Virus record (IMG/VR): IMGVR_UViG_3300005842_000001
Span: 1 to 64,000 of that record
DNA from: a virus
DNA length: 64,000 nt
Direction: 5' to 3' (one strand)
Shown: positions 18,820 through 39,765 of the stretch, one piece after another
Position numbering within the stretch: the stretch's first letter is position 1
Layout of the letters: every line of letters begins with the position of its first letter
Made by a program: the position numbers and the translations under genes
The notes under the pieces: generated by a model
Told to the model about the DNA's origin: nothing
Database searches by the model: none
Seen by the model: the letters and a program-made list of their open reading frames with translations, nothing else

Positions 18820-18834
18820 ACCAGCGGGGGCATC

Positions 18835-20694: not shown

Positions 20695-20697
20695 GCG

Positions 20698-20985
20698 ATG
20701 AGGCAGATCGTAGCTGAAGAGACTGGCAGAACTCTTGTTTTCGATGACTTCGGCATTGATTGGCAGGGGCTTGGCTACACACTGAAACTTGAAGCCACCG
20801 ACGCCAACGAGGTTACAAGAATACATGCAATATCGCCAAGCGTGACTTACCCACACGGCGGGCAGATCGTCGGCACAGATGATATTATGCCGATTTCTGG
20901 TCGGTACACTTGCGTTGTCTACGAAGAGAACAACCTCTACATCAGTAGCCGATTCACTGTTACAATTGGTCAGGGACATTATTAG
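20698..20985 (+). CDS. hypothetical protein
   Basis: GGAGG RBS; beta-rich. Confidence 0.55.
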   Translation: MRQIVAEETGRTLVFDDFGIDWQGLGYTLKLEATDANEVTRIHAISPSVTYPHGGQIVGTDDIMPISGRYTCVVYEENNLYISSRFTVTIGQGHY

Positions 20986-23485: not shown

Positions 23486-26400
23486 ATGAATCAATTACCA
23501 ATGAATCCTGGCAACGACATGACCGACGTTCGCATCAAGTCGGGACTATTCGGCGGCATGGGCGGTATTGGCCGACAGATGGGCCGGGTGATGTACCGCA
23601 CCGGGCAGTTCCTCGGTGTCATGCCTTGGGAGACGCCGAGACGTTCACAGATCGGGGTCGATCCCATCGGTGAAGAGTTCATGCTCAATGAGGATCAGCA
23701 AGCTAAGGCCCGCTTGATGGGTCAGAAAATCTATCACGAGTTTGTTGCTGGTCGTTTCAGCTTCTTGTCCAACGACGATGGCAAGAGCAACGAAACGCCT
23801 CAGATGCGTGAAGAATACTGGAAGTTTGCAGTCACAGAGCCAGCGCTTGACGCTGCTCTGTGGACAAAGATCACCGCAGTCATCGCCAATGAATTGATCA
23901 TCAAGCCATCATCGAAGTCAGGCTTTGATCGATACATTGCCGATTGGGTGCATGACTGCATTATCAGATGCAAGGGCGGCTTGCGCAACATCGGTGAGCA
24001 GATTCTCTTTCATGGTCAAGTGTACGGCAATGTGTTATGTGAACCGAAATGGAAGCACGAGCATCGGCAAGTCCACTCAACGATGTTCCCTTATGGTTTC
24101 TGGACGCTGAAGGATTTCGTTGCAAAGCCACCGGGCGATTACAAATTGGAAATCGATGGCTTCAGAAACATCACCGGCGTCTGGTCGGCAAAAACTGCTG
24201 AATGGTTCGATCCTACTTACTTCGTTTATTGGGCTCACAAGCCGATCTATGGCAACATGGGCGGCACGTCGGGCGTTCGCAGTGTCAGACGAGCTTGCAC
24301 TCTTCTAAAGCTGGCCCACAACTATCGAGGCATCTACCTTGAGCAGTTCGGCTTGCCGATGATCAAGGCGACTTACCCCCAGAACGATGACGACTCTCAG
24401 CGCATCGCAAGAGCAGCGATTCAACACGCTCGATCACTCGGCTACATCTTGATACCAGAAGGTGTTGACGTTGAGGCATTGACACTGGCACAGCGCGGCG
24501 AGTCTGACTATCAGGATGCCATTGACGATTACCGAAAAGAAATCTTCCTTGGGCAGACAGGATCGTACCTGTATGCGATGGAAGGAAGCGTAGGTCATGC
24601 TGCTGGCAATTCAGAGACTCACCGCAGTACGCTTGATCTGTGGGTTGGGTATCTCAGCAAGATTCTGGAAGAGATTCTCAATGATCAGATCATTCCCTGG
24701 CTGATCACGCTAAATATATACAACGCTGATCCGCCACGAGCTATGATCGGCGGCGTCAACGATGAAGATTTGAAAGCATCACTTGAGGTTGACGATAAAT
24801 TGATTAGCTGGGGTGTTGAGCTTGATGAAGATGAACTACGAGATCGCTACCACCGATCAGCGCCAAAGAATGGCAAGGGCATTGGCGGCATGAATCGCTT
24901 GATGCTTGGGATGAACAATGGCATGGGAGCAAACAATGTACAAGGCAACCCGTTCGCTGGGCAAGCCGCTTCATTCCCGTTGCAGAATCAGGGGCAAGCC
25001 GCGAATAACAATACACCGCCGCAAAGAGATGATCAGACAGTTAAGTTCTCAGCAGATGACGAGGACTTTACACAGCAGCAAAACTATACTTGCGGAACGG
25101 CATCACTCCGATTCGCCATGAACCATTTTGGTGTCACTCCGCCTGAAGAAAGTGTGCTGTCCCTATTACTTGGTACGACACCAGCACAAGGCACGAATGC
25201 AGCCTCAATCGTGAGGCTGGCAAAGCAGAATGGGCTAGAGGCTGAAGGCCAGTCCAACATGACAATGCTCGAAATGTCAGAGCGTCTGAAGGATGGGGCA
25301 GTCGTACTGGCTCCCATTCAGAAGTTCGGGTCACCTGAAGAGAAAGCGAAGAATCAGACTGGTCACTGGATCGCTGTAACACGTCTTGATGGTTCAAGCG
25401 GTATGCTTGAATACTTCGATCCAGTTTTGGGCAGTGACAAGCCCTGCTGGGAGTCGTTGCAGACGTTCGCTGCCAACTGGCATGATCGAGATGGTGATGG
25501 GAAGATGTTGCCCAGGTATGCGATCACGATCAGCGAACCTAAAAAAAAAATGACATTCAGCACCGATGATCTGCAACTTGGATACATCTCGATTCCGCTG
25601 CCTGAGTTCGCTGAAGCAATCCAGAAGGTGCAAAGCGCGATCGATCCTGCTGACTTGATCAAGACTGAGAATGATCATCATATCACGTTGCTTTATGGTT
25701 GTGGCGCTGACAGCTTCGATGACAGCGTGAAGCTCTGCGCTAGCATTGCACCAATCAAGATGACTTTTGGCGGCACATTCACACTGTCGCCAAAAGATGC
25801 GGACCATGACGTTCTGGCGTTCAAAGTCTATGGCGATGCTCTTGAGAAAGCAAACTACAGTCTCGCCAGCGGGTTAGAAGTCAAGCAAGACTACGATACC
25901 TTCCAGCCCCACGTCAAAATAGGGCGGCTCAAACAAGGGGCAGGGTCAAAATATACTTCACCATCATTTGCGGGCTTCTCAGCATTGCTGGGCGATTCCA
26001 AGGTGGCTGAGTCTGCTCAGTTCAAGGTAAAGGGTGGTGAAGCGTTAAGCCTCCCTTTTGCCGCAGTGTCTGATTTACCAGTTCTGAAGTTCTCAGAAGA
26101 GCCAGCAAGCGATGAAGTTGCCAAGCCGGGTAAAGATGGCGACAAAGCAGATAAGCTGCTACAGAACGTCAAGGAAGACGGTACAGCGATCCTGGCTCGA
26201 CTTTGCAAAATGGCATATCGCCGCATGCTTGATAATGGCGTTGGTGGCAGTCAGCTATTCACGATGCAAGAGAGGAACGAACTCACCGAAGCATTCTTGG
26301 GCTGTGTGATCAATGCCAATCTGCTTGGTCGATCATCCACCATCAGCAAGTTCCTGAGAGACCAAGATGAATCGAGAGTTGATCGATTCGCTGATGAAAC

Positions 26401-27793
26401 GCCATTCGATGCGTTTTCATCTGCCCTTGATCCTTTGCGCCCTGAGCTAGCGATTGATTATTTCAAAAATCTGTTCCCGATGATCGGCGTTGATCCAGTG
26501 GCGTACATTCCGCAGATGAGGCGATATGCCTTCACGTTGGCGGTTGCAACCGAGACAACTCTTCTTGGTAAGGTTCACGATCTACTGACTGATGCACTAC
26601 ACGAAGGAACGCTTGACACTCAATTCAAGATCGATGATCTGCTAAAGAAGACTGGCGTGGCTCCTGAAAACCCGCAGTACAGTGAAATGGTTTTCAGGAC
26701 GAACATGATGGACGCCTACACGACTGGCACGACAGATCAGGCAAAAGACCCGACCATTGCCGAAGCGTACCCGGTGTGGCGATACGATGGCATCGACGAC
26801 GAACGCGCTGGGAAAGATCATCGCCCCAAGTTCGGGAAGTATTATCCATCGTCAGCAGAGTTTGCTGATGTTCGTGGTGATCGTCCTTATAACTGTGTTC
26901 TCCCTGGGCAGATGACACAGGGAAGAATCAATGGGGCATTAAAAGCCCACTATTCTGGCGAAGCGGTCGAGATTTATAGTGACAGTGGTGATATTATTTC
27001 CCTGACCGTCAACCATCCCGTATTGACCGATAGAGGCTTTATTCGTGCTGGCGAAGTGAAGGAAGGAGATTATCTTGTCAGCTATTCCGGGGAACATCAA
27101 ATCCCTGTTCTTGGTGAAGACTATCAATACTTTCCAACCTTGATCGAAGATGTATTTGAGACGATTAGTGTAGTTAAAGGTAGGTCGGCTAGGGCTTCTG
27201 CCCCAGTTTCCCTTTTCAAGCTCTATGGCGATGAGTTGTTCCTTGAAAGCAAGATCGACGTTGTAGGCTCCTATCGGGAATTGCTGTTCAATGGTGTGCC
27301 CCATGATTCTGAGCGTGTTCGCAACTCTATCCTCTCTGGGGCTACGGTGAAGCTGCATGGCATACCACGAAGCAGCACGCTTCAATTTAACAGCCATGCT
27401 GTCAGTCATCCCTCTTCTAGCGGCGTGGGCCTTAGCGACTTGCTTGGCTCTGATGCGTTTGCTCATCAAACTCCATTTAGTCTTTTCTGCTTCGGATCGG
27501 CCTCGCACCTTTATTCCCAATTTGACGAATTGCTTTCTAAGACAACTTCTGTCGATGTTCAGTTTGTCGGCAAGAGCCTTCATGGAGGCACCGGCAAGGT
27601 AGCGTTTAGCAAGGCGAGAAAGATTAGGAATTTCCATTACGATGGTCCTGTGTTTGATTGCTCAACTGATGTTGGATATTTTATAGTAAATAACATCTTC
27701 ATTTCAAATTGCCGCTGCTGTCCTACGATGATCTACAAGACAACATGGCAACAGTTGCAGGATCAAGGTAAGAGCGTAGAGACAAGCTGGTAG
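23486..27793 (+). CDS. portal (DUF935/Mu gp29-like) - C39-like peptidase - 2H phosphoesterase - MuF (gp30-like) fusion, intein-containing
   Basis: Portal signature YLEQFGLP..IPEG.DVE..LGQT..SETH; Q.NYTCG..GHW..YFDP; HIT/HVK; MuF AFTLA, VFRTN, YDGIDD.R..H, PYN|CRC. Confidence 0.88.
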   Translation: MNQLPMNPGNDMTDVRIKSGLFGGMGGIGRQMGRVMYRTGQFLGVMPWETPRRSQIGVDPIGEEFMLNEDQQAKARLMGQKIYHEFVAGRFSFLSNDDGKSNETPQMREEYWKFAVTEPALDAALWTKITAVIANELIIKPSSKSGFDRYIADWVHDCIIRCKGGLRNIGEQILFHGQVYGNVLCEPKWKHEHRQVHSTMFPYGFWTLKDFVAKPPGDYKLEIDGFRNITGVWSAKTAEWFDPTYFVYWAHKPIYGNMGGTSGVRSVRRACTLLKLAHNYRGIYLEQFGLPMIKATYPQNDDDSQRIARAAIQHARSLGYILIPEGVDVEALTLAQRGESDYQDAIDDYRKEIFLGQTGSYLYAMEGSVGHAAGNSETHRSTLDLWVGYLSKILEEILNDQIIPWLITLNIYNADPPRAMIGGVNDEDLKASLEVDDKLISWGVELDEDELRDRYHRSAPKNGKGIGGMNRLMLGMNNGMGANNVQGNPFAGQAASFPLQNQGQAANNNTPPQRDDQTVKFSADDEDFTQQQNYTCGTASLRFAMNHFGVTPPEESVLSLLLGTTPAQGTNAASIVRLAKQNGLEAEGQSNMTMLEMSERLKDGAVVLAPIQKFGSPEEKAKNQTGHWIAVTRLDGSSGMLEYFDPVLGSDKPCWESLQTFAANWHDRDGDGKMLPRYAITISEPKKKMTFSTDDLQLGYISIPLPEFAEAIQKVQSAIDPADLIKTENDHHITLLYGCGADSFDDSVKLCASIAPIKMTFGGTFTLSPKDADHDVLAFKVYGDALEKANYSLASGLEVKQDYDTFQPHVKIGRLKQGAGSKYTSPSFAGFSALLGDSKVAESAQFKVKGGEALSLPFAAVSDLPVLKFSEEPASDEVAKPGKDGDKADKLLQNVKEDGTAILARLCKMAYRRMLDNGVGGSQLFTMQERNELTEAFLGCVINANLLGRSSTISKFLRDQDESRVDRFADETPFDAFSSALDPLRPELAIDYFKNLFPMIGVDPVAYIPQMRRYAFTLAVATETTLLGKVHDLLTDALHEGTLDTQFKIDDLLKKTGVAPENPQYSEMVFRTNMMDAYTTGTTDQAKDPTIAEAYPVWRYDGIDDERAGKDHRPKFGKYYPSSAEFADVRGDRPYNCVLPGQMTQGRINGALKAHYSGEAVEIYSDSGDIISLTVNHPVLTDRGFIRAGEVKEGDYLVSYSGEHQIPVLGEDYQYFPTLIEDVFETISVVKGRSARASAPVSLFKLYGDELFLESKIDVVGSYRELLFNGVPHDSERVRNSILSGATVKLHGIPRSSTLQFNSHAVSHPSSSGVGLSDLLGSDAFAHQTPFSLFCFGSASHLYSQFDELLSKTTSVDVQFVGKSLHGGTGKVAFSKARKIRNFHYDGPVFDCSTDVGYFIVNNIFISNCRCCPTMIYKTTWQQLQDQGKSVETSW
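26939..27637 (-). CDS. antisense-encoded HTH + DUF559/Vsr-like endonuclease nested inside the intein
   Basis: YLAGASMKALA..I.RS.LR....GI.VR (HTH); SPRE..V...EQQFPIG.YNVDLA...IAIELE.G.W...GWKVL (DUF559-like); AGGA 8 nt upstream. Confidence 0.75.
   Translation of the reverse strand: MEIPNLSRLAKRYLAGASMKALADKLNIDRSCLRKQFVKLGIKVRGRSEAEKTKWSLMSKRIRAKQVAKAHAARRGMTDSMAVKLKRAASWYAMQLHRSPREDRVANTLRIMGHTIEQQFPIGAYNVDLAFKEQLIAIELEKGNWGRSPSRPTFNYTNRLKYIFDQGWKVLIVFTKNRDLMFPGIADKIISFLHFASTNKASIGQYGMVDGQGNNITTVTINLDRFARIVGF
27638..27707 (-). promoter_or_regulatory. sigma70-like promoter and RBS for the antisense endonuclease
   Basis: Minus strand TTGAAA (27707-27702)-N18-TAAAAT (27683-27678); AGGA at 27649-27646. 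Confidence 0.55.
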
Positions 27794-27888
27794 CTGGTCA
27801 TTGCCCAGAGTGTTCCTACTATGAAGACAACGCAACATGGCCCGGAGTTGCTGAAACGTGTCGAGGTAAGTTGGTAGCTTGGAGGCAA

Positions 27889-28242
27889 ATGATGCAAGCC
27901 TTACCGCCCCCGGACAATGATACATTCACCACTCTCTTGAGGGCATTAACTGCTGGTGTGCTGGGCATGATAGGTGCGAGCTTCTCTTCCTTAGATCGAG
28001 CAGTGAAGGGGAAAGAAATGTTCTGGCACCTGGGCTTGTCACTGTTTCTCTCTGGACTTACTTTTTGCACGTTGGTATCTATCTGGCCAGGTATTTATTG
28101 GATCGTGTGGCTTCTTCCTTCGTTCGTGATCGGCTTCTGTGTCTACGGCATTGCAGTTGCATTGAAAAAAAACAGCAAGTCTGCCGAAGACTTCGACGTT
28201 ACTAAAGTCATCAAAAAGAAAACAGGCATAGAAGGAGATTAG
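27889..28242 (+). CDS. three-TM membrane protein, holin candidate
   Basis: Three hydrophobic helices, highly charged C-terminus; GGAGG RBS with tandem Met starts. Confidence 0.5.
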   Translation: MMQALPPPDNDTFTTLLRALTAGVLGMIGASFSSLDRAVKGKEMFWHLGLSLFLSGLTFCTLVSIWPGIYWIVWLLPSFVIGFCVYGIAVALKKNSKSAEDFDVTKVIKKKTGIEGD

Positions 28243-28245
28243 GTC

Positions 28246-28626
28246 ATGTTCGTGATTCTCTGGGTGCTTGACAACATTGGAACCGCGCTCACAGTTGCAG
28301 CGGCTTTAGTAATCTTTGCGGTCGTTTGCGTACCGATGAGTCACCGACCTATAATTGAAAGAGTGTTCGGATTGTTCATCGGAATTTCGACGATGGGATC
28401 AGCACTTGATCGTTTTGCGCAGGTCATGGCTCAATATGACGTAGATGGTAGCGTTCGTTGCGTGGCTATGCTCATCTTCGATATTTCAAAAATGGGCATC
28501 GTGATTACAGGCGGCATGTTGCTCTATCGGTATATCGTGATGAAGAGAATGAACTGCGCTAGTGCTGATCGTTATGTGAAAAAATTGTCTGATCAAAAGA
28601 CTCCATTTTTTGCGGTGTCTCATTAA
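28246..28626 (+). CDS. membrane protein
   Basis: Three hydrophobic segments; AAGGAG RBS. Confidence 0.6.
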   Translation: MFVILWVLDNIGTALTVAAALVIFAVVCVPMSHRPIIERVFGLFIGISTMGSALDRFAQVMAQYDVDGSVRCVAMLIFDISKMGIVITGGMLLYRYIVMKRMNCASADRYVKKLSDQKTPFFAVSH

Positions 28627-28679
28627 GCTACGAATCGTGCCAGTGGTAAAACGCTGGCACGAATTATGAAAGGTAGAAG

Positions 28680-31600
28680 TTGATGCGAACTATTACGCAG
28701 TCAATTGTGCGCAGGAGAGCGCAAAGTGCGATTCTAGGTCAACGTGGCTCCCTCACGCCGCCATTCTATGCCGGTGCTGTTTCAATCGCACCGCCACTGT
28801 CGTCAAGGTATCTTGCCTACCACGAAGGCTCCCTGGGCGTTCTCGATGGTAGCGGCAACCCGCAAACTACTGCGTTCGGCATCGTCGGCACATGGCAGGA
28901 CCAGAGCGTCAACGGCAACCATCGCGTTCAGTCCAACAATGCTCTCCGCCCATTTGCCCGTACAGCCAGCACGCCTGGACTCAAAGTCGTACCAGCAGTC
29001 TACCCGTTCACAGATAACGCTAGAGCGCTTCCTTGTTCGACAATCATCATCGACAAACGAAACACGTCGTTCTATGCCATCGTCGACACCGATTATCAAG
29101 TTGCCTTCAATAATGCAGAATCAAGGGTACTTTGGTCAAGCAGTGCTGGCACGTTGCAATATGATTTAGCATCCTTGAGCTTTGGAAGGCTTCAATGGGT
29201 AGATGCCGGGGGAACGCACGATACTGGACTACGACTCTCGGCAGGATGGAATCTCGTTGGGGTGCAACTACTTGCAACAGCGGTCGTGGTCTGGGTCAAC
29301 GATCAAAGCGTTTCTTATGCTGCTCTCAGTGCCGGCACGGTCACAGGCGACATACTGTTTAACAATGCTGGCGGGGTATCAAGTTGGAAGGGAAGTTGCC
29401 CGGTGGCTGTTCTGCACACTCCCGCCATTACTGCTGGCGAAAAGTCTTCCTTGATTGATCCGTGGGCCAGAAGCCGAAGAGTGAATTACACGACATCAAC
29501 CACCCCGCTCTTGATCGGTTTCGGCAACTCGCTGGCTTCTGGATTATCCGCAAAAGATTGGCAGGGCTACCTCTGGCAGTGCGATTACGGCGACGCGCTT
29601 TACCACAATGTTGCATTTGCCGGCAAGCAGTGGACTGATGCGAACGATCCACTGAATCTAAATGGCGTCAATCTTAATGACATTAACAGGCTTGGCATCT
29701 GTCTCGGTGATCTTGGGACAAATGATATATATTTAGGAGTCCCGGCAGCCACAGCGTTCGCCAATCGTTCTACTGTGATTGCCAGATTGCGTGCTGCTGG
29801 TCTGTTTTTCATTGAGCTATTACTCACCCCTTCTTTGGGGATTGTGAATGCAGGGCATGAGGCAGAGAGACTTGCCTATAATGCGTTGGTGCTGGCGGAA
29901 ACTGATAGGGTTCACAGTAACTATAAGATCGGCATTCCAGCTAATCTTGCTGACTATAGCAACCTTGATTATTACACTGTTGATGGTGTGCATTACACCA
30001 GGCTGGGGCATGCTCAGTATCCGCCTGAGTTCCAGTCTGCATTGAATTCAGTGCTTGCGTTGAGAAGCCAGGTCAGTACGCTGCAAGCTAAGTATTATTT
30101 CAATGGCGATTATTCTGACAGCACCATTTACACCAGAGACTTGACAGTCATCACAGGAAGTCCGTCTTTCAGTGCTGGGATTGGCGGACAACAGCGACTC
30201 ACTCTCGTCAAGGCATCCAGTCAAAGCGTCTCCCACATTGTTGCCAGTAGTGGAAACAATCCGGGTGTCTTTGACTGGTATCCAATGACGATTGCGTTTT
30301 GGTTGACTACGACCAATTCAACAAGTGGTACGATCATAGCCAACAGTGACAATGCCGGCGTTGGCTTCAATTGCTATCTCGATACGCATGGCCAGATTCA
30401 TTTCGACTTGGTTCGGCAAGCAGCGGCAGGCAGTGTCGCATCAGGGCCAACGTCATTTGCAGTTAATGACGGCGTGACACGGTTTGTTGCTATTGTCATT
30501 GATTCAGCCGGAGTGAGGATTTATGTCTCTCCTACCTCCAACCCTGCCCTTGCAGGACTGGAAACATCGACGGCATGGACTGGCACTCCTGGGAAGTTTG
30601 TGCCGTCCAGCCGGGCATTGCGTATAGGCGTGGATCAAGCCGGAACTACTTTCACCGACATGTCGATGCAGACGTGTTACTTCTTTGCGGAATCTAAGTC
30701 ACTGGTAGACCTGCAAGCACTTCAGGCGATCCCCGGAACAGCAGCGCCAGAACCACCAGTTTTGACCACTGGTGTTTACACGACAGGAAGTATGCCGGTC
30801 ACTGCACTCCCACCGCTGAACCACAACAGTACAATTACGCTCTACAAGTTCTACATAGCTTTGCACAGCGGGGGAGCGCATCCTGATGATTTCACCCTTG
30901 CTGGCACTTCTGTCACACCCAATTTCACATACACAGTTACTGACGGTCAGGACTACCACATCAGATGTACGGCAGTAAATGCAATTGGCGAAAGTGCCGA
31001 TAGCAATGTTGTGACGTTTACCGCTACCGCTGTTTCGTCAGTGGCCGGAGCTACAGTGATATTCGATGCCTGGGTTGGCCCTTACACTGACGATGGAGTA
31101 ACGCTCTGCACTGCCAGCGGCGACAGGATTAAGCAACTCACGAATCAAGCCGTGGCTAACTACGGATCGCAGCCGACCGCCAACCTCCGGGGCGTCTACA
31201 AGATGTACCGGCAGAACGGGCGGCCAGCGATTCAGTTCAGCGGTGGCCAGTTCCTGAAGTTCTTGAACGCGATCAACACCTGGCCTTGCACGGTTGCTAT
31301 CGCCGGGTATTGGCGGGACTTTACCGGCGTCAATGGTCGCATCTTGGGACTAGGCGGCCCGCAGAGCTTGTTCAGTACCGGCACCAACTGGACAGCCTAC
31401 GCCATACCAGGCGGGTTTACTCAAGACCTGGGGGCCAGCGCATCAGTTCCTAAAGTAGCTGTCATCCGCTTCGATCATTCAGCGGCCTGGAAAGTTTGTT
31501 TCAATGGTGTGCTTGGCGGCAACCTCCAATTTAACGCTGCGGCATCCGGCAATCTTGCTATCGGTGCTCACGGTGACGATGGCGGGGAATGGGCTGATGT

Positions 31601-31697
31601 TGAGTTTTATCGCTTCAAATTCTGGCCCAGCATTCTCAATGATGCCAATGTGCTGCTGGCCGCTGCCGAAATGAACAGCCTGCTGGCGATTTACTAA
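28680..31697 (+). CDS. LamG/ConA-like + SGNH esterase + FN3 multidomain virion or receptor-binding protein
   Basis: SGNH blocks GNSLASG, LGTND, DGVH; W.DQS.NGNH and LamG-like strands; FN3-like Y.I.CTAVNAIGESADS. Confidence 0.7.
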   Translation: MMRTITQSIVRRRAQSAILGQRGSLTPPFYAGAVSIAPPLSSRYLAYHEGSLGVLDGSGNPQTTAFGIVGTWQDQSVNGNHRVQSNNALRPFARTASTPGLKVVPAVYPFTDNARALPCSTIIIDKRNTSFYAIVDTDYQVAFNNAESRVLWSSSAGTLQYDLASLSFGRLQWVDAGGTHDTGLRLSAGWNLVGVQLLATAVVVWVNDQSVSYAALSAGTVTGDILFNNAGGVSSWKGSCPVAVLHTPAITAGEKSSLIDPWARSRRVNYTTSTTPLLIGFGNSLASGLSAKDWQGYLWQCDYGDALYHNVAFAGKQWTDANDPLNLNGVNLNDINRLGICLGDLGTNDIYLGVPAATAFANRSTVIARLRAAGLFFIELLLTPSLGIVNAGHEAERLAYNALVLAETDRVHSNYKIGIPANLADYSNLDYYTVDGVHYTRLGHAQYPPEFQSALNSVLALRSQVSTLQAKYYFNGDYSDSTIYTRDLTVITGSPSFSAGIGGQQRLTLVKASSQSVSHIVASSGNNPGVFDWYPMTIAFWLTTTNSTSGTIIANSDNAGVGFNCYLDTHGQIHFDLVRQAAAGSVASGPTSFAVNDGVTRFVAIVIDSAGVRIYVSPTSNPALAGLETSTAWTGTPGKFVPSSRALRIGVDQAGTTFTDMSMQTCYFFAESKSLVDLQALQAIPGTAAPEPPVLTTGVYTTGSMPVTALPPLNHNSTITLYKFYIALHSGGAHPDDFTLAGTSVTPNFTYTVTDGQDYHIRCTAVNAIGESADSNVVTFTATAVSSVAGATVIFDAWVGPYTDDGVTLCTASGDRIKQLTNQAVANYGSQPTANLRGVYKMYRQNGRPAIQFSGGQFLKFLNAINTWPCTVAIAGYWRDFTGVNGRILGLGGPQSLFSTGTNWTAYAIPGGFTQDLGASASVPKVAVIRFDHSAAWKVCFNGVLGGNLQFNAAASGNLAIGAHGDDGGEWADVEFYRFKFWPSILNDANVLLAAAEMNSLLAIY

Positions 31698-31706
31698 GGA
31701 ACCGTC

Positions 31707-34013
31707 ATGAAAACATTACTTTCCTTGCTGCTGATTCTTTTCAGTAGCACCGTTGCAGCCCAATCCCCCATCGCCTTATCGACGAGCGATCCCAAGTTTG
31801 CGCCACACTCAGAGATCATACCAAAACCGATAGCAGCGCTGGCGTTTGGCACTAGAGGCCCAGGCTATGCTAACGGTTCACGTCCTGCTGGCCGATTCGA
31901 TGTTGCGTATGCTCTCGTCGATGAACAAAGCAAGCTGTCGCCACTGTCAAAGCCAGTAACAATTGCATCATCGTCATCCGACTGGGATATTGTGGTGTCG
32001 ACGCCGGTGCTTGATCTGTGGACACGCGCGATCGGAACGATGTGGGTATACAGAGCAACAGGAACAGCCGAATGGAAGTCTCTCGGTTGCAATCGTAACT
32101 GTGTAGTGCCATGGGCAGCGACTCGACCATTTATGCCGCTTGTAGGTTGGGATCATTCGTTGGGTGGCTTTCAACTCTTCTCAACACAAAACTTCTGGCC
32201 GACATTCAGTGATGTTTACTGGAAACAAACATCGACGCTGGCACAACCACCACCGCCATCGGTTCGTTTGCTTTCATGCCCGAACATTGCTTTAGAAGCT
32301 GCCTATTCGTGGGCATGCAATGAAGGAGAGACGCCGTTATCAGACGTAACAAGTATCGCTGCTGTTCCTGGCAATCCTGCAACGATTCATGCACCATGTC
32401 AGTTGTACCGCAACATTATACCACCACAAGGCGCTCTCGGTTCTTACGTCTATTTGAGAGTGCCGGGTGGTCAGTGGCATCGTCAAAAATCCCATCAATC
32501 AGCAGACAGCTATCTATGGCCGATTGACTCAAATCAATTACCGATCAATGAATATGTTGAAACAGGCGTCAAGCCCAGCGGCATCGTCGGCAAGTCATGG
32601 CTTAGTTCAATCCATCTGGCGATGCGTGATTGGCGACGAGACGTGATCATTGACACCGATCAGACTATTTGCTGCCCGGTAATTTCAGCTTATGATGGGC
32701 CAAGTTGGGTATATGACCCACGCAATCAGCAGATCGCTTTTGGTGTGAATGCTTTTGCTTACCCCAACGAAGGATGGACTCTATCAATTGATGGTGTCAC
32801 AAGCGGCTACCTTCGCCCTACGTCCGGCTGGCAAACTTGGCAGCAAGTCGCTGATACTGCATTTGGCCCCGGTAATGTTGAGCTTCGATATGGTAGCGGC
32901 TTTGGTGGCGTGGTGATCGTTTTCACTGGCAAGTATGCAGCGACAGACATGACGAATCGCATCAAGACTGATTTCACGAAACTTTATCAGATCAACAACA
33001 ACGATGCTAGCAAGCCGCTAATGGATACATCAGTACCGCCAAAGCCGATTCCTTTTGCAGTTCCTATAGTCGATTCCTATACTCAGTCAGCGCGTAGTTG
33101 GTACATGTCAGCAGGTGGTCAGAAGTTCAATCGAACGATTGCAACAGGAAATGGCGGTGGGTGGGTTCTCAGTGACACAGCGACGACGCCAGAAGGCAAG
33201 TCGAGCTATCCTGGTGACTGGCCTTTGTGGGTAGAGAACAGCCAGCGAACTCGACTGATCGGTTGCAAGATGACACGGAACCAGTCCAATTGTGGAATAG
33301 CTTTTATAGATCATTCAGGCGGCGGTGCTTTTTCATTCACAGCGAAAGATTGTGCTTGCTCTGCTGGCGTAGGAAATAATGGCAACACTTATGGAGTTCG
33401 ATGTACCTGGACAAGCAGAGGGCCAGCTTGGAACAACCATTCAGCGTCTGAGCCATATTTTGAAAACTGTTCTTTCCAAGCGAAACACTGCATAGTCTGT
33501 GAAGGTGGCCAGTCAGTCAACTGGTTATTCAACACTACCTACGGCGCTGGTGATGGCACCATTGAATCTTCAATCGTCACACAAGCCAACTCAGGGGCTA
33601 TGTCTTTCAAAGGCAGAACAAACGTCGATAACTCACGCACCATCGGCGCTATGACATGGGCAGGAAAGGTTGACATTGAAGGCATTTGGCTCGATCAGGG
33701 TGTACCGTGTTGGTTTACGATCACCGGCAACACGTTCCCAGCCATGTCGATCAATGGTACCAAGATCAATCAGTGGCGTGATTGGCTACATGTCATCGAA
33801 GCGCCGACAGGCAGCATAGGCTATCCGGTCAATTTGACGTTGAGCAATCTCGATTCTCAGTTCAATGGCCAGCCGGTAACAATGCTTGCATCGACTCGTG
33901 ACATGCTTACCGTCACTCAGAAAGACCCGGTGAACTTGCTTGCAAATCTTGTGAAGACGGGACTTGTCACGATTCCAGTACCTGTTAAAAAGCAAATGCT
34001 ACGAAGCAGATGA
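31707..34013 (+). CDS. signal-peptide-bearing large beta-rich protein
   Basis: MKTLLSLLLILFSSTVAA signal peptide; C-terminal half has beta-helix-like N/C/G ladders. Confidence 0.65.
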   Translation: MKTLLSLLLILFSSTVAAQSPIALSTSDPKFAPHSEIIPKPIAALAFGTRGPGYANGSRPAGRFDVAYALVDEQSKLSPLSKPVTIASSSSDWDIVVSTPVLDLWTRAIGTMWVYRATGTAEWKSLGCNRNCVVPWAATRPFMPLVGWDHSLGGFQLFSTQNFWPTFSDVYWKQTSTLAQPPPPSVRLLSCPNIALEAAYSWACNEGETPLSDVTSIAAVPGNPATIHAPCQLYRNIIPPQGALGSYVYLRVPGGQWHRQKSHQSADSYLWPIDSNQLPINEYVETGVKPSGIVGKSWLSSIHLAMRDWRRDVIIDTDQTICCPVISAYDGPSWVYDPRNQQIAFGVNAFAYPNEGWTLSIDGVTSGYLRPTSGWQTWQQVADTAFGPGNVELRYGSGFGGVVIVFTGKYAATDMTNRIKTDFTKLYQINNNDASKPLMDTSVPPKPIPFAVPIVDSYTQSARSWYMSAGGQKFNRTIATGNGGGWVLSDTATTPEGKSSYPGDWPLWVENSQRTRLIGCKMTRNQSNCGIAFIDHSGGGAFSFTAKDCACSAGVGNNGNTYGVRCTWTSRGPAWNNHSASEPYFENCSFQAKHCIVCEGGQSVNWLFNTTYGAGDGTIESSIVTQANSGAMSFKGRTNVDNSRTIGAMTWAGKVDIEGIWLDQGVPCWFTITGNTFPAMSINGTKINQWRDWLHVIEAPTGSIGYPVNLTLSNLDSQFNGQPVTMLASTRDMLTVTQKDPVNLLANLVKTGLVTIPVPVKKQMLRSR

Positions 34014-34067
34014 CGCTATATATGTGTTTCGGTATCATGTCAACAACTCTGTTTCAAGGAGAGGCTC

Positions 34068-34304
34068 ATGAATTGTTTACTCGGCTGTCTGATGACAGTC
34101 ATCTGTTTCTTGCTCGTCGGCGCTGATGCTGAGGCATCTCGTCGGCATCGAAGTAAGAATCAATGCAACGGCGAGACGTGTTCTTCGCCTGTAGTCAACT
34201 CTGCTCAATGCAGCAAGCCAGCGCAAGCAGTCAAGAAGGATTGCCCATGCGATAACTGCAAGTGCCAGCAGTGCGAATGCGACAAGAAGTCGAAAAAGAA
34301 GTAA
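34068..34304 (+). CDS. small exported Cys-rich protein
   Basis: Signal peptide ending ADAEA; CPCDNCKCQQCEC metallothionein-like tail. Confidence 0.6.
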   Translation: MNCLLGCLMTVICFLLVGADAEASRRHRSKNQCNGETCSSPVVNSAQCSKPAQAVKKDCPCDNCKCQQCECDKKSKKK

Positions 34305-34324
34305 GCCACTCTGAGAGGTGCGCT

Positions 34325-34792
34325 ATGTCGTGTGTTATCAAAGTCATCGTGGAAGGGTGTCACTGTGATTGCAAACCTGCAACACCACCCGCCCCGAAAA
34401 TCGGTAAGGGAGATTCAGTTACCATGGAAAAGATGCAATACCCCATTTTCGCCATTCCTGAAAAAACAAAGGAGGATGTGACCAAGATCACATTCAACTA
34501 TCAATCGGATGGCGAGCCTCAACAAACTCTTGAACTTGCTGGGCAAGTTGCAACCCCTGAAGCCCCTCAGTTCTTCTATGTCACTCCGAACATTCCTGGT
34601 AAGTGTTGGTGGACTGAGCGTGACAAGAGTGGGCTGGAATCTTTACCAAGTCCCGCCGCTGATTACACTGGCACTGATGAAACACCGCCGCCAGCAGTTG
34701 CAGGAGCGCCAAGCATCGGGAAAGGCGACACGATTGAACTTCCTGATCCACCCGCCCCACCTGAACCGCCGCCACCGGCCCCGCCAGTCTAA
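34325..34792 (+). CDS. Pro-rich hypothetical protein
   Basis: GAGGTG RBS; internal repeat P(K/S)IGKGD; poly-Pro C-terminus. Confidence 0.6.
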   Translation: MSCVIKVIVEGCHCDCKPATPPAPKIGKGDSVTMEKMQYPIFAIPEKTKEDVTKITFNYQSDGEPQQTLELAGQVATPEAPQFFYVTPNIPGKCWWTERDKSGLESLPSPAADYTGTDETPPPAVAGAPSIGKGDTIELPDPPAPPEPPPPAPPV

Positions 34793-34815
34793 ATGAACAT
34801 GGTTCAAATGAACTC

Positions 34816-34851
34816 AACGCCGTACACTTCTCAAGGTGTACGGCGTTTTTC
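34816..34851 (+). terminator. Rho-independent terminator
   Basis: AACGCCGTACAC / GTGTACGGCGTT stem plus T run. Confidence 0.75.
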
Positions 34852-35089
34852 CATGTAGAGACCTGCTGATGATTTATCGATTGATCGTGATTCTACTGGC
34901 TAGTTTTGGCTTCTCTATCATCACTTCTTTTTTTTGGTTTCATTTCGCCACTTTGCATATCTATACGCAACATGGCCCGATCTTCATTCTGGCACAAGAT
35001 CAAAAAGCAGTGCTGATCGTCGGCGGCTGTGCTTTTGTTGTGGGTCTGGTACTGTTTGGAAGAATAGATAAACTCAAAAGGTAACTACG

Positions 35090-35563
35090 ATGGAATTGCT
35101 CAACAAAGCTGTGAACGCCTTCGTCCTGATGCTTTTCGGGTTCATGTCAGGCGTTCTGTTGGGGCCATTCGTCATTCAGTGGATCAAGGGATACTTCATC
35201 TCTGTAGATGCTGCTGATTTAATTCTTTCAATCGAAGGTGTGAATATGTTCAATCAGATGAAGATCGGGACTCCTGGTCGGATCAGCTTGAAGCCGGTCG
35301 ATGCTATCGGCACTCTACTTGCATCGCCGCCGCCGATAACTTTTGACACAGCGCCGTCATGGACGTGCGTTCCTGCTGAACAGGCAAAACTTATTCCAAG
35401 TCCAGATGGGTTATCATGCTCTATCGTACCATCGGGACTGGGTGATCTTCAGATTGGTGTTGCCTTCAAGCTGACTGGCAAAACCGCTGCAACAAAGCAA
35501 GTCACTGTCACGATCACTCCGGGCGATGTTGCCGATCTGTCGCCAGTGTTTGAAGCCAACTAG
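35090..35563 (+). CDS. Ig-like beta protein, possibly membrane-anchored
   Basis: N-terminal TM segment; W...P....L.PS.DGLSC.I..G Ig-like strands. Confidence 0.5.
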   Translation: MELLNKAVNAFVLMLFGFMSGVLLGPFVIQWIKGYFISVDAADLILSIEGVNMFNQMKIGTPGRISLKPVDAIGTLLASPPPITFDTAPSWTCVPAEQAKLIPSPDGLSCSIVPSGLGDLQIGVAFKLTGKTAATKQVTVTITPGDVADLSPVFEAN

Positions 35564-35606
35564 GTTCTGAGTTGGTAGAATTGATTCAACTTGCCAGGAG
35601 AGAGAC

Positions 35607-36269
35607 ATGACTTCCCAGCTACAACGTCCAATCATTTCTACCAAACTCCTGTTGCAAGTTGCCGCCGTTGGTGGCACATTACCTCAGACATTCAAATCGT
35701 CTCTATACCCTTCGCTCTTTGCCATGGCGAAGGGTGCAGTAGCGAACATCACTGATAACAGTTCTAATTTCTGGGCAGTTCGATTGTGGGAACGTGAGAA
35801 AGTATCCTCATTGCGCTGGCTGGCGATTGAAGGTGTTACCCCTGGCGCTGGCACTATCGGCATTGCTATTGCTTTGGTGCCTCGAATCACACCGATTCAC
35901 GGCATTGCCGCTGCTGATGCTGCTGACAATAAGGCAGTTATCGGGTCTGGCAGGTCATTGGCTCGAATTGCACGAGCCACATTAACTGTCGATTCAGCGT
36001 TGATTATTCCTTCCGATTCGTATGAACCATTTACAGGTGCAACTCTCTTGGGTTCGCCGCCGAGAGCTTTACGGCCATTCTCAGGCATCACATGGGCAAG
36101 ACGTGATTCTTCTATCCAGTTTGCCGATGATGGTTTTGCCACTGGAAACATCGGGCAAATCAATCTCGATCTGAGCTATACCGAGTTCGTTTGTGTGTCA
36201 GTCGAAGCCATCTCTTCGGGTACTCCGATTGGTGGCGTTGCTTGCGGCATCGACATTGAATCTCAGTAG
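35607..36269 (+). CDS. hypothetical protein
   Basis: AGGAG RBS; 220-aa ORF. Confidence 0.6.
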   Translation: MTSQLQRPIISTKLLLQVAAVGGTLPQTFKSSLYPSLFAMAKGAVANITDNSSNFWAVRLWEREKVSSLRWLAIEGVTPGAGTIGIAIALVPRITPIHGIAAADAADNKAVIGSGRSLARIARATLTVDSALIIPSDSYEPFTGATLLGSPPRALRPFSGITWARRDSSIQFADDGFATGNIGQINLDLSYTEFVCVSVEAISSGTPIGGVACGIDIESQ

Positions 36270-36280
36270 CAGGTGAGAAC

Positions 36281-37828
36281 ATGCCAGCGGTTTTGGACAA
36301 CGAAAAAATAAAAAATCAGGAAATTGTCAAGCCCTCAAAGATGTACCGGGTTGAGCGTGTTCGTCTATTTGAATCAGGCAACCACAAGGGCATCGTCTAC
36401 GAAAAAAAAGACATTGATGATGCTGTTAATAATTTCAACGCATTCAGCACACCAGAAGTACACAAGCTGGAAGTTCCAATTGTTCTCGGACACGAGGAAG
36501 CGCAAGTCCTACTTGATATGACTGGCCACCCTGCGGCGGGCTGGATCGAATCAGTTTGGGCCGAATTAGAGGGCATTGAAGAGCCTTTCATCGACGACAA
36601 TGGCAATGTGAAATGGCGTCAACGTGAAGCCTATTTTCTGTACGGGAACTTTTACAAAGTCCCTGAAGATGTAGCACAGTGGATCGTGGATGGAGCATAT
36701 AGATATTTATCTTGCGAGTTCAGCAAACGAGAGAAGCCACCCGCTGGCGTCCCGGCGATTGGCCCGATGCTGCTGCGCGTTGCGATTCTTGGTGCTACAC
36801 AGCCTCACGTCAAAAGTTTAGGACCACTGCCCTCCCCGATTCCTGATTACTCTGTAAACTTGTTTTCAGACAGTGATTCAGCAGCCTGTGACATTGTAAC
36901 TTTGCTACTCCCCATCAAGGGAGCAACTTGCTTCAGTGAGGATAAAGCCATGAACGATGCGATGATGAACGCTCTTGCTGCTCAAGGTATCCCTCCTGAA
37001 GCCTGTAAAGTTTTGGCTTCTATCGATCCCACCAAGTATGCTTCAGTCGGCAAGGCTTTCTCTGAAGCTGGCAATCCTCAACCGCCTCAACCCGGTGGTC
37101 AGGCTGGCTCTTTTGATCGTGCTGCTACGATTGAAAAGCTCAGCGCATTGCCCAACGCTGATCGTGACGCCATCGGCAAGATGAGTGATGATGAACTCAA
37201 GTCGATGTACAGCAAGTCCAAGTTTGCTGATGGCGGTGGCAACAATGCTCCTGGCAACAATGACGTTGCCAATCCTGGCACCGGTGGCAATGGCACTCAG
37301 AAGCCATCTTTTGCCGCTGATGACAAGAAGGACGATCAGAAGTTTTCAGTGATCAACCAAAAGACCAAGGAACTCGAAAGCGAAATGATCGAGTTCCGGA
37401 AGTGGCGTCAAAGCACTGAGGGCAAGTTGAACGCTGAAGCGAAACAACGTGCTGATGCCGAATACGCTGCAACGTGCAAAGAGATTGATAAGTTTTGCAC
37501 CGATCAAGTTGCTGCTTTCCGCATTACTGCTCGTGAGGCTCCGCTTCACGCTAATGCAATGAAGGAGATGGCAAAACTGCCAACCTTCAAGACGGATGTG
37601 GTCAAGTTCAGCGACGACAAGGGCAAAGAAGTTACTGGTAATCCTGTTGAGGCGTACAAGGCGACAATTCTTGCCCGTAGTGTGATGAAGTTTTCTCAAG
37701 ATCGAATTGTCTCACCTGCCCCAGGTGGCAAGGAACTCACCCGCGCTCAACGCATGATCGCCGGTTCACGAATCGGCAAAGATATTGCCGAGATGAACCG
37801 TAAGAAGGCAGCGACTGCTACCAAGTAA
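36281..37828 (+). CDS. Mu gpI-like prohead protease with C-terminal scaffold
   Basis: PIVLGH, PAAGWI, YRYLSCEF, LLRVAILGA.QP.VK.L motifs followed by a low-complexity/coiled-coil scaffold. Confidence 0.85.
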   Translation: MPAVLDNEKIKNQEIVKPSKMYRVERVRLFESGNHKGIVYEKKDIDDAVNNFNAFSTPEVHKLEVPIVLGHEEAQVLLDMTGHPAAGWIESVWAELEGIEEPFIDDNGNVKWRQREAYFLYGNFYKVPEDVAQWIVDGAYRYLSCEFSKREKPPAGVPAIGPMLLRVAILGATQPHVKSLGPLPSPIPDYSVNLFSDSDSAACDIVTLLLPIKGATCFSEDKAMNDAMMNALAAQGIPPEACKVLASIDPTKYASVGKAFSEAGNPQPPQPGGQAGSFDRAATIEKLSALPNADRDAIGKMSDDELKSMYSKSKFADGGGNNAPGNNDVANPGTGGNGTQKPSFAADDKKDDQKFSVINQKTKELESEMIEFRKWRQSTEGKLNAEAKQRADAEYAATCKEIDKFCTDQVAAFRITAREAPLHANAMKEMAKLPTFKTDVVKFSDDKGKEVTGNPVEAYKATILARSVMKFSQDRIVSPAPGGKELTRAQRMIAGSRIGKDIAEMNRKKAATATK

Positions 37829-37908: not shown

Positions 37909-38634
37909 ATGGCAACTTCAGCACTCAAAACATTCAGCCCCCGAATCACCCCAGCTTGGCCCGCTGGCAAGGTGCCTGTCGCCACACAGCCTGTTAAACT
38001 TGCTGCCAGCACTTCATACACTGCGGGTGCGATTCTTGGCGAATTGCTCGGCACGAATGAAGTGCAAATCCTGACTCCTGGCGGCACGATTTCAGGTGGA
38101 ACCTGGACGATCACCTATAGCGGTCAAACGACTTCCGCTTTGGCTTACAACGCAACAGCAGCCACCATCCAGACAGCCCTTGAAGCACTGTCGAATGTTG
38201 GTGCTGGCAACATTGCTGTTACCGGTGGGCCTATCTCTTCTGGTGTTGTCACTCTGACATTCCAGAACGATCTGGGTTATCAGAACGTGGCAGCAGTGAC
38301 CGTGGGTACTGGCTCACTCACTGGATCATCGCCAACTCTCACGCCTTCGACGACTACCCAAGGCGCTACGGGTACAGATGGCGGCTACGATACTTACAGT
38401 GCTTCATCTGTGACTGGCCTTCAAACTCCGAAGGCGATCTTGGCTGACACTGTGACCACTGACTCTAACGGCAAGGTCATCAATGATGACGGAACCACGT
38501 CAACGCATGCAACAGCATACTTGACTGGCTCTTTCAGGTCTGATGACGTGCCGACGATCACCGATGCGATCTTGACTGCCAAGGGTGGCCGATGGCTTGT
38601 CGGCAACTCTGCTGGCGGCATCTTCCAGTGGTAA
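37909..38634 (+). CDS. head decoration protein with inserted beta domain
   Basis: AGAILGE....P.AILA....A.AY..G.F pattern of decoration proteins; lies between protease and capsid. Confidence 0.7.
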   Translation: MATSALKTFSPRITPAWPAGKVPVATQPVKLAASTSYTAGAILGELLGTNEVQILTPGGTISGGTWTITYSGQTTSALAYNATAATIQTALEALSNVGAGNIAVTGGPISSGVVTLTFQNDLGYQNVAAVTVGTGSLTGSSPTLTPSTTTQGATGTDGGYDTYSASSVTGLQTPKAILADTVTTDSNGKVINDDGTTSTHATAYLTGSFRSDDVPTITDAILTAKGGRWLVGNSAGGIFQW

Positions 38635-38712: not shown

Positions 38713-39765
38713 ATGGCATACGACATTCCCGATCTGGTAGCGTTGCAGGAAGTCGAGCAAGAAATCCTGCCCGTTCTCACGATGAATGATCCTTTGTTTG
38801 ATCTGTTCCCTATCGACAGCGAAAATGCTTCGATGATCGAATGGGAACAGAAGGACAACTTTGCTGGCCTGATGGCTGTCCGTGGCATCAATGGCAACCC
38901 TGGCCGAGTCCAGAAAGTGGGTTCAAAGACCTACTCAATGGAACCCGGCTACTACGGTGGCTTCACTCCGCTTGACGAGAAGGAACTCACCAAGCGAAGA
39001 TCGCTCGGCACGTTTGATGAGCCGATCAACATTGATGATCTGATCACAGAAGCTCTTGAGCATCTGATGACTCAGCAGATCAACCGACAGCGGAAGATCA
39101 TCGCTGATCTGATCACCACTGGCACGTTCAGCGTCACGAACGAATTGACTGGCTCAATCGATCACACTGACAGCTTCACGCTGCCAGCTTCGACCGCTTC
39201 GATTCCTTGGACGACTGTTGCAACTGCAACTCCTTTGCTCAACATTCGTGCTGCCATTGCTACCCGCATTGGTTACAGCTACGATTTTGGCAAAGAAGCC
39301 ATCATGTTGATGAATCAGAACACCTACAACAATTTCATCAACAACGCCAACAGCGCTGATCTTGCTGGCAAGCGGGCTTCGTATGGTCAGACTTATCAGA
39401 GTGTCGGTAATCTCAACGACTTGCTGGCGGCTGACAACCTGCCTCAGATTCTGGTCTATAACGAATCTTACTTGGCTACCCCAAGCTCAACGCCTACGCT
39501 GTTGATTCCTGATGGTAAGGTTGTGATCTGCGGCAAGCGAAAGACTGGGCGCTCTCTCGGTAACTTCACAGTGACGAGGAACGCCAATCACCCTGACATG
39601 GCGGCTGCACCTTACTTGTGGATCGTTGACCCGTTCCAAGCTGCCTCTGGCAACATCCTTCCTTCGTCTGGGTCGATTCCTCGAACCATCGAAGTTCACC
39701 GGGGCTTCAATGGTGGCGTCAAGTTGCCCTTCCCTGGTGGCATCTATGTCTTGACCGCCTACTAA
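38713..39765 (+). CDS. major capsid protein (lambda gpE-like family)
   Basis: Position, 350-aa size, and LFDLFP..IEWE..LMA.R..W....ATPL..I....IPDGKVV...P pattern. Confidence 0.85.
   Translation: MAYDIPDLVALQEVEQEILPVLTMNDPLFDLFPIDSENASMIEWEQKDNFAGLMAVRGINGNPGRVQKVGSKTYSMEPGYYGGFTPLDEKELTKRRSLGTFDEPINIDDLITEALEHLMTQQINRQRKIIADLITTGTFSVTNELTGSIDHTDSFTLPASTASIPWTTVATATPLLNIRAAIATRIGYSYDFGKEAIMLMNQNTYNNFINNANSADLAGKRASYGQTYQSVGNLNDLLAADNLPQILVYNESYLATPSSTPTLLIPDGKVVICGKRKTGRSLGNFTVTRNANHPDMAAAPYLWIVDPFQAASGNILPSSGSIPRTIEVHRGFNGGVKLPFPGGIYVLTAY

Follow-up and report, generated by a model that had tools for sequence, protein, structure and literature searches.

It is known that prohead proteases process their substrates at short motifs, that the portal protein of Mu is trimmed, and that effector domains can be attached to portal or MuF proteins. 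Herpesvirus assemblins act at a consensus in which Ala stands before Ser (Ala|Ser). Phage T4 gp21 cuts after Glu in I/L-x-E. The last 124 residues of the Mu portal are absent from the 2025 electron cryomicroscopy structure, an absence that its authors describe as fitting possible cleavage by protease I (PMC11915804). Fusions of effector domains, 2H among them, to MuF or portal proteins have been described among head genes, with packaging and injection as their expected fate (Iyer et al. 2017, PMC5512222). Here, we analyze a 64,000-nucleotide stretch of viral DNA, positions 1 to 64,000 of IMG/VR record IMGVR_UViG_3300005842_000001, in which a portal polyprotein and a scaffold-fused prohead protease carry the same short motif: Phe, then Ser or Ala (or Cys), then an acidic residue. 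This window, 64 kb out of a 72.8-kb phage record, is coding almost wholly on the + strand. Judged from sequence, this is a genuine short linear motif, conserved and linked to the family of this protease, and it is probably, if by no wide measure, the recognition and cleavage motif of the phage's own assemblin-fold, scaffold-fused prohead protease.

The protease/scaffold protein (P0002) carries most of the motif copies. Its gene is laid out below, with lengths in amino acids (aa), model confidence as the predicted local distance difference test (pLDDT), and A1 standing for a close scaffold alignment of this phage with homologues at 66% and 40% identity.

36281-37828, + strand: protease/scaffold gene, 515 aa, located two genes before that for the major capsid protein; match to PHROG 976, head maturation protease (E 5.5e-22)
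36329-36856, + strand: predicted assemblin-fold serine protease domain, residues 17-192; AlphaFold2 pLDDT >90, structural matches, invariant H71 and S144
36860-36946, + strand: candidate scaffold sites 1 and 2, LFSDSD (F195) and CFSEDK (F218), flanking disordered residues 196-223 directly after the protease domain
37055-37357, + strand: candidate scaffold sites 3 to 6, AFSEAG (F260), KFADGG (F315), SFAADD (F344), and KFSVIN (F355); from the AlphaFold model and A1
37490-37705, + strand: candidate scaffold sites 7 to 9, KFCTDQ (F405), KFSDDK (F443), and KFSQDR (F471); Phe invariant in A1

The structure model points clearly to an enzyme domain with the assemblin fold of herpesviruses and T4. Aligned with VIA-align, residues 19-191 of the model match the pseudorabies virus protease at Z 8.5 (root mean square deviation [rmsd] 3.2, 118 residues aligned) and T4 gp21 at Z 8.3 (rmsd 3.4, 115 aligned). 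The 30 best-ranked matches comprise only herpesvirus proteases and T4 gp21, at Z 8.5 to 5.0, and the next match, an unrelated protein, has Z 4.2; Foldseek gave a probability of 0.98 and E 7e-3. His71 and Ser144, the putative catalytic residues, are invariant in 60 aligned members of the protease family (alignment A3). By sequence, the tie of this protein to the Mu gpI-type proteases is transitive only. It matched no Pfam family even at E<=1, did not reach the cut-off of Mu-like_Pro (PF10123), and gave no tblastn match among named phages; one relative, P0034, passes Mu-like_Pro (26.9 bits; cut-off, 25.2), and another, P0037, matches by tblastn BcepMu gp32 and the proteases of B3 and JBD67, with 75 phage records in all. 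As in the Mu gpI type, the gene for the scaffold-fused protease sits between the portal and major capsid genes.

All nine scaffold motifs that a preliminary description had quoted from the sequence are present, and all nine Phe (195, 218, 260, 315, 344, 355, 405, 443, and 471) lie, as it had said, C-terminal of the protease domain. In the model, long helices are predicted at residues 352-411 and 485-514, and 6 to 7 of the nine sites stand in or at the edge of stretches with pLDDT <50 (196-223, 265-275, 318-348, and 474-484). At sites 1 and 2 the F-S pair is invariant in A1, and E220 is at least 90% conserved in A3. F260 and F315 are helix ends just ahead of disordered segments 265-275 and 318-348, F344 lies in disorder, and F355 is at a helix start; of these four, F344 alone is invariant in the close homologues, and the other three are each missing from one or two of these sequences. 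F443 reaches at least 90% conservation in A3, and F471 stands just ahead of disordered residues 474-484, 44 residues from the C terminus. The Phe is thus invariant at six of the nine sites (195, 218, 344, 405, 443, and 471). Two further matches to the loose form of the pattern, at F55 and F147, fall within the protease domain.

Enrichment was measured against a crude set of 105 open reading frames (ORFs; 23,449 aa), of which 21,499 aa lie outside the portal fusion and the protease/scaffold and contain 22 copies of F[SA][DE]. The preliminary description had proposed counting this pattern in both proteins, and for the scaffold part the expectation was borne out: residues 193-515 (323 aa) have 5 copies against 0.33 expected (Poisson p 2.5e-5). 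Relaxing the pattern to F[SAC] with a nearby acidic residue gives 8 against 0.77, and 9 of the 13 Phe in this part are followed by S, A, or C, a count matched by 9 of 20,000 shuffles. The scaffold enrichment signal is solid. A 619-aa protein encoded at 18835-20694 holds 21 of the 183 F[SA] dipeptides of the proteome and so inflates the F[SA] background. It contains 16 protein-level repeats of ~20 to 24 residues (~19495-20490), each ending in L-T-L-T-K-F-A-P or a variant, and belongs to no known family; Tandem Repeats Finder detected no DNA-level repeat at 18800-20700. The [K/R]-F-[A/S] core of these repeats resembles the protease motif, but Pro comes next.

The signal extends across the protease family. 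An exhaustive, profile-free search of a representative library returned 652 protease relatives at E<=0.001, and we analyzed the 150 listed representatives together with the query. Among these 151 sequences, Ser or Ala follows 1007 of 2638 Phe against 448 expected. Once the protease domain had been trimmed off with a family hidden Markov model, FS is the most over-represented dipeptide in the 150 scaffold parts (413 against 94.7 expected), followed by KF (376 against 133.5) and then by SE and FC; the homologues are not independent, so these family-wide counts overstate significance. In the protease domains of the same family FS is outside the top ten dipeptides. The scaffold halves are among the least conserved parts of these proteins (mean column identity, 18% in A3), and a logo over 778 sites reads V-x-K-F-[S/A/C]-E, with Glu at +2 in 537. 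Family proteins have a median of 5 sites (range, 0 to 12), the first of which falls no more than 9 aa past the end of the protease domain in 54 of 148 proteins and the last of which falls 30 to 49 aa from the C terminus in 90 of 148. An x-F-S-E-G/S string 2 to 5 residues before the protease domain in 7 of 16 N-terminally extended members, with F-A-E-S in an eighth, was rejected as junction evidence because it is aligned with the domain's own conserved F30...G33 strand.

The second carrier of the motif is the portal polyprotein, in which the copies alternate with the domains.

23486-27793, + strand: portal polyprotein gene, 1435 aa, encoding portal, C39-like peptidase, 2H, spacer, and MuF with intein; Pfam, PHROG, and 6 homologous fusions
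23837-24850, + strand: portal core of Mu gpH type, residues 118-455; Portal_Mu PF06074 (E 1e-38, 134 bits; cut-off, 23.9), PHROG 113 portal protein
25040-25060, + strand: junction 1, VKFSADD (F521), at the border of portal core and C39-like domain; conserved in 7 of 7 fusions
25070-25396, + strand: C39-like papain-fold peptidase, residues 529-637; Peptidase_C39 PF03412 at 21.0 bits (cut-off, 22) and C39_2 PF13529 at 21.4 (cut-off, 24)
25550-25570, + strand: junction 2, MTFSTDD (F691), at the border of C39-like and 2H domains; Phe in 6 of 7 fusions
25574-25927, + strand: 2H phosphoesterase/RNA-ligase-like domain, residues 697-814; PHROG 755 RNA ligase (E 6e-4) and homologues with PF13563
26084-26104, + strand: junction 3, LKFSEEP (F869), C-terminal of the 2H domain; conserved in 7 of 7 fusions
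26123-26380, + strand: helical spacer, residues 880-965; hhalign to the terminal helix of Mu-like portals, with helices predicted in the homologue P0007
26381-26428, + strand: junction 4, DRFADET (F968, from 26381) and DAFSSAL (F977, 26408-26428), directly before MuF; alignment of 7 fusions
26417-27790, + strand: MuF (SPP1 gp7-like) minor head domain, from residue ~978, split by an intein; Phage_Mu_F (E 2.3e-4, residues 1029-1128), PHROG 220 and 15127
26894-27709, + strand: intein, 272 residues (1137-1408; Cys1137 ... Asn1408, then Cys), in the N-C-R-C motif of MuF; Intein_splicing (E 1.8e-5, 25 bits; cut-off, 35.8)

The four junction motifs of the preliminary description are all there, three of them starting at 25040, 25550, and 26084 rather than at 25043, 25553, and 26087 as it had given; its fourth coordinate, 26381, is exact. 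We compared these junctions across seven close fusions, the one in this phage and six homologues at 43 to 70% identity (alignment A2), delimiting the linkers by conserved anchors. Conservation at cargo borders, which the preliminary description had named as a check, is complete at junctions 1 and 3 and at F977 and partial elsewhere. Junction 1 reads F-[S/A]-(A)-D in all seven, and in five homologues the motif contains the sole Phe of a Gly/Gln/Pro-rich linker of 41 to 49 aa. At junction 3, all seven have F-[S/A] with a nearby acidic residue, in linkers of 33 to 69 aa that are otherwise not alignable. F977, a fifth junction site additional to those described earlier, lies nine residues beyond F968 and is invariant in 7 of 7. 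In the AlphaFold model of P0007, the homologue at 70% identity, mean pLDDT is 63, the C39-like and 2H domains reach ~80 to 90, and all five junction Phe fall in linkers with pLDDT <50, in a model built on shallow alignments. The counterpart of F521 is F547, in a stretch with pLDDT <50; those of F691 and F869 are F718 (stretch 713-726) and F899 (stretch 891-917); and those of F968 and F977 share a low-confidence stretch. Residues 456-1000 of the fusion hold 3 copies of F[SA][DE] against 0.56 expected (p 0.019). Counts over the whole fusion are not significant, however, and the case for the portal polyprotein therefore rests on position and conservation.

Some relatives of the fusion vary the arrangement. 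The more distant P0013 has its portal joined straight to MuF, then three F-[S/A] within ~35 residues, and then a C-terminal extension of >800 aa. P0011 has at junction 2 an extra insert of ~50 residues, with four Cys in zinc-ribbon-like spacing, directly before an S-F-S-Q-F-D copy of the motif. P0014 (809 aa), a separate or partial gene product, starts at the segment after junction 3 and runs through an intein-bearing MuF to an extra C-terminal domain; at the motif-equivalent places it has Tyr-Ala-Glu/Asp and not Phe-Ser/Ala.

The domains between the junctions can be assigned with varying assurance. With portal, C39-like, 2H, and MuF domains in one ORF adjoining the terminase gene, the protein has the composition of a polyvalent protein. 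Both C39 scores fall below their cut-offs here, and precomputed tables label the fusion homologues PF13529/PF03412; the domain is probably active, because Gln530, Cys536, and His627 are invariant across the seven fusions. The first H-x-T motif of the 2H domain (H732, T734) is invariant as well. Its second catalytic motif (residues 809-811, ~25910-25920) reads H-V-K in this phage and H-x-T in 6 of 6 homologous fusions, so that the 2H domain here may be altered or inactive. Residues 930-952 of the spacer match the terminal helix of seven Mu-like portals weakly by hhalign (E 0.0011, probability 20%), and BLASTP against Mu gpH found no similarity at 880-965; the spacer may perhaps represent the C-terminal domain of a Mu-type portal in displaced form. 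In our own reading of the alignment, the N terminus of Mu F would correspond to the residues just after junction 4. The gene layout suggests, on weak similarity, a possible origin in which the Mu layout, a portal gene overlapping a MuF gene, was fused into one frame and cargo was inserted at the cleavable tether of the portal. The N-C-R-C motif of MuF is uninterrupted, without intein, in five homologues. The penultimate residue of the intein is Ser, not His; P0008 has an intein elsewhere in MuF (after N-P-Q-Y), and inteins also occur in P0013, P0014, and P0015.

The head modules of ten named Mu-like phages provided an outside comparison. The other proteins of these phages contain 19 copies of the strict pattern F[SA][ED] in 33,139 aa. 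Their scaffold parts contain 27 in 2583 aa against 1.48 expected, and the last 150 aa of the ten portals contain 7 against 0.86 expected (p 3e-5), distributed over 6 of the 10 phages. The portal copy occurs in a low-complexity C-terminal linker just past the portal core, and the B3 portal copy, E-F-A-E-G-D, is identical over all six residues to a scaffold copy of that phage. B3, BcepMu, Bhz63, YPCBV-1, and HXX_Dennis all have the motif, and all are without a C39 domain. Mu itself is without the Phe motif. L-S-A occurs five times in the 183 aa of its scaffold, a count that none of 20,000 shuffles reached, and its portal contains A-A-L-S-A-E-D once, at L429, the sole L-S-A after the last ordered residue, 388. 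The hydrophobic residue of the motif has thus changed to Leu in scaffold and portal together.

From the presence, enrichment, conservation, and linker position of the motif and its link to the protease family, we infer cleavage, the bond that would be cut, and the fate of the pieces. The portal polyprotein would nucleate the prohead, and the protease/scaffold would coassemble inside it. The protease would then free itself at F195/F218, just past its catalytic domain and comparable to the herpesvirus release site, fragment the scaffold at later sites, and detach a basic C-terminal tail, probably capsid binding, at F471, which would be comparable to the maturation site. It would also cut the disordered linkers of the portal extension at F521, F691, F869, and F968/F977. 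The capsid would be left with twelve trimmed portals together with free C39-like peptidase, 2H phosphoesterase, small helical spacer, and MuF, and the freed C39-like peptidase, 2H, and MuF would be cargo likely to exit with the DNA. As for the bond, only Phe and Ser/Ala stay constant from lineage to lineage, and this favors a cut next to them, by analogy with Ala|Ser in the assemblins. The family-wide Glu at +2 recalls the T4 gp21 cut after Glu and would by analogy place the bond possibly one or two residues past F|S; an acidic residue stands at +2 in only 7 of 13 sites here, however, so a cut after Glu cannot hold for all of them.

Several results weigh against cleavage at this motif. The pattern is loose and was defined post hoc, as the 7 of 13 acidic +2 residues illustrate, and the nonindependence of the homologues, noted above, bears on the family counts. 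The expected enrichment of F[SA][DE] failed to appear over the whole portal fusion (4 against 1.47 expected, p 0.06). Junction 2 is less conserved than junctions 1 and 3: Phe is kept in 6 of 7 fusions and F-[S/A] in 4 of 7, P0009 and P0010 having F-D only and P0008 reading K-M-S-D with no Phe. F968 is likewise kept in 4 of 7 fusions, the other three having Asn or His. Two well-conserved residues, F405 and F443, lie within predicted structure at pLDDT 76 to 97 (a long helix and a beta hairpin, respectively), where they could be conserved for folding or binding. Among the Mu-like phages, the portal tails of Martha and phiT1 lack F[SA][ED], that of S-CBWM1 shows no more than the weak variant F-T-P-E, and the strict portal match of AFS-2018a is in the helical C-terminal domain and not in a linker. 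In an 806-aa member of the family (P0044), which has an ADP-ribosyltransferase exoenzyme domain (PF03496, E 7.6e-28, residues 147-306) N-terminal to the protease/scaffold, no motif occurs between the two domains. A pattern scan found no copy of the motif in the major capsid protein either, which therefore gives no third, independent substrate.

The structured copies are one ground for supposing that the motif is an uncut docking or assembly peptide whose copies all bind one partner, for example the inner capsid surface, the portal crown, or a protease exosite. Some of the best-conserved copies, F405 and F443, are in helix and hairpin, and conservation and enrichment indicate function, not proteolysis specifically. 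We nevertheless consider docking without cleavage unlikely. The majority of copies are in disordered linkers at domain borders, and the positions seen across the family mirror the release and maturation sites of assemblins, just past the protease domain and 30 to 49 aa from the C terminus. In addition, the L429 copy in Mu lies beyond the ordered end of a portal whose C terminus is reported absent from virions, an absence that the structure's authors consider to fit cleavage by protease I (PMC11915804). A different possibility is that the polyprotein processes itself through its embedded C39-like cysteine peptidase, the Phe motifs being C39 sites. Autoproteolysis by embedded peptidases has been proposed for polyvalent proteins (PMC5512222), and the catalytic Gln, Cys, and His are invariant in the seven fusions, yet the same motif is found in the scaffolds and portal tails of Mu-like phages without a C39 domain, so an embedded peptidase is not needed to explain it. 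This makes self-processing at these sites highly improbable. C39 enzymes cut after Gly-Gly, a pair contained in just 5 of 7 linkers at junction 1, where the linkers are rich in Gly in any case; at the remaining junctions the pair shows no conservation.

Cleavage by a host protease at Phe-Ser/Ala is less probable still and draws on a dipeptide resemblance only: the Staphylococcus host protease Prp reportedly cleaves between Phe and Ala when it trims the phage 80alpha capsid and scaffold proteins. The motif, in contrast, accompanies the Mu gpI-type protease in phages whose hosts are as different as Pseudomonas, Burkholderia, Stenotrophomonas, Xanthomonas, Pasteurella, Synechococcus, and a Bacillus-group bacterium. 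That it tracks the protease across hosts and co-changes in the scaffold and portal of Mu fits a specificity encoded by the phage. Finally, the motif could be a product of chance or composition, a loose pattern chosen after its matches had been seen; with 51 loose matches in the rest of the proteome and a whole-fusion p of 0.06, the objection is a natural one. It is nonetheless very unlikely, the least probable of these readings, given that the scaffold excess survives shuffling, that FS ranks first in 150 family members, and that the junction motifs are conserved within linkers that cannot otherwise be aligned. Cleavage by the phage's own prohead protease is the reading that we continue to prefer.

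A broader proposal, which we advance tentatively and with rather less than even confidence, is that the Mu gpI-type proteases share a portable code consisting of a hydrophobic residue (Phe, or Leu in Mu), Ser or Ala, and usually Glu or Asp, and that the portal tether is a general loading dock. If so, domains placed between two copies of the code would be built into the prohead at portal stoichiometry, and once the protease had freed them they would be delivered together with the DNA. The peptidase, 2H enzyme, and MuF loaded in this way would make this phage an extreme example, and the mature head proteomes of thousands of Mu-like phages and prophages would be predictable from sequence. The preliminary description had gone as far as a plug-in system packaging any domain flanked by such linkers, a generalization that is borne out only in part. 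The same cargo set (C39-like, 2H, and MuF) is found in all seven close fusions, and P0044 has its extra domain without a junction motif. The idea has a further limit: cargo fused to portal or MuF is already in print (PMC5512222). In P0044 the cargo is attached to the protease itself.

The genes around these two complete the picture of the head module.

38713-39765, + strand: major capsid protein, 350 aa; Pfam Phage_cap_E (E 1e-11), PHROG 29

The gene at 37909-38634, downstream of the protease/scaffold gene and ahead of that for the major capsid protein, encodes a 241-aa protein for which PHROG gives weak matches to Ig-like portions of tail proteins; it occupies the place of the decoration protein in Mu-like phages. 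Between the portal and protease genes, 28680-31697 encodes a 1005-aa protein with a GDSL-type esterase region (below the Pfam cut-off) and a concanavalin-A-like lectin domain but with no PHROG match; by its domains, it may be a decoration or fiber protein with esterase activity. In IMG/VR, the portal alignment matched only two short, near-identical contigs, and the close scaffold alignment A1 found nothing.

A prohead-protease motif at cargo borders would bear on several questions. How effectors fused to portal or MuF are released in the capsid is an open point in the polyvalent-protein literature, and such a motif would make it directly testable. It gives exact predicted termini for this phage and predicts portal termini near L429 in Mu and F398 in B3, both easily grown phages. 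It would also allow mature virion proteins to be better annotated across a family that is very large, as the 652 relatives recovered here show, and would suggest a defined route for loading foreign proteins into phage heads. In the parts of the literature that we searched (PMC5512222, PMC2628397, PMC11915804, PMC12991175, PMC11445458, PMC5576092, PMC3517404, PMC4378225, and a phi24B preprint; most subscription papers on Mu assembly fell outside this scope), we found neither a statement of the motif nor its assignment to Mu-type proteases nor its use at cargo borders.

Compared with the polyvalent and MuF-fused effectors (Iyer et al. 2017, PMC5512222; Jamet et al. 2017, PMC5576092), the polyprotein of this phage is alike in having enzymatic domains fused to MuF or portal among the head genes. 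The excerpts of those papers differ from our account in the matter of release, for which they propose embedded peptidases or nothing, and they place no prohead-protease motif at the borders; in Jamet et al. (PMC5576092) the string "cleav" occurs 0 times. The Mu system of protease I, scaffold Z, and gpH shares with this locus the portal family PF06074, a related protease family, the gene order, and a motif held by two proteins, with Leu in Mu for Phe here. It differs in that the piece proposed to be cut from the portal here comprises ~900 residues, enzymes and MuF included, as against a small tail in Mu, where MuF is a separate gene, and in that the protease of this phage scores below the Pfam Mu-like_Pro model.

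Like T4 gp21 and the systems of phiKZ and SPN3US, the candidate system described here would use a short motif, repeated in core, scaffold, and packaged proteins, by which cargo is trimmed in the prohead. The motif is over-represented in the scaffold, and its copies stand at exposed domain borders, two scaffold copies within structure excepted; the family logo, F-[S/A]-E, follows the hydrophobic-small-Glu pattern of the T4 site. The cargo, unlike that of T4, phiKZ, and SPN3US, which is targeted by N-terminal propeptides, would be a polyprotein tethered to the portal. With the herpesvirus assemblins this phage shares the predicted fold, the fusion of protease to scaffold, and the placing of candidate sites, one immediately past the catalytic domain and another a few dozen residues short of the scaffold C terminus, and Ser would be the P1' residue in both. 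The differences are Phe before that Ser, nine candidate sites instead of two, and the portal as a proposed substrate. An assemblin-fold protease with candidate sites past its own domain and near the scaffold C terminus would thus link the maturation logic of the Mu family to that of herpesviruses and T4.

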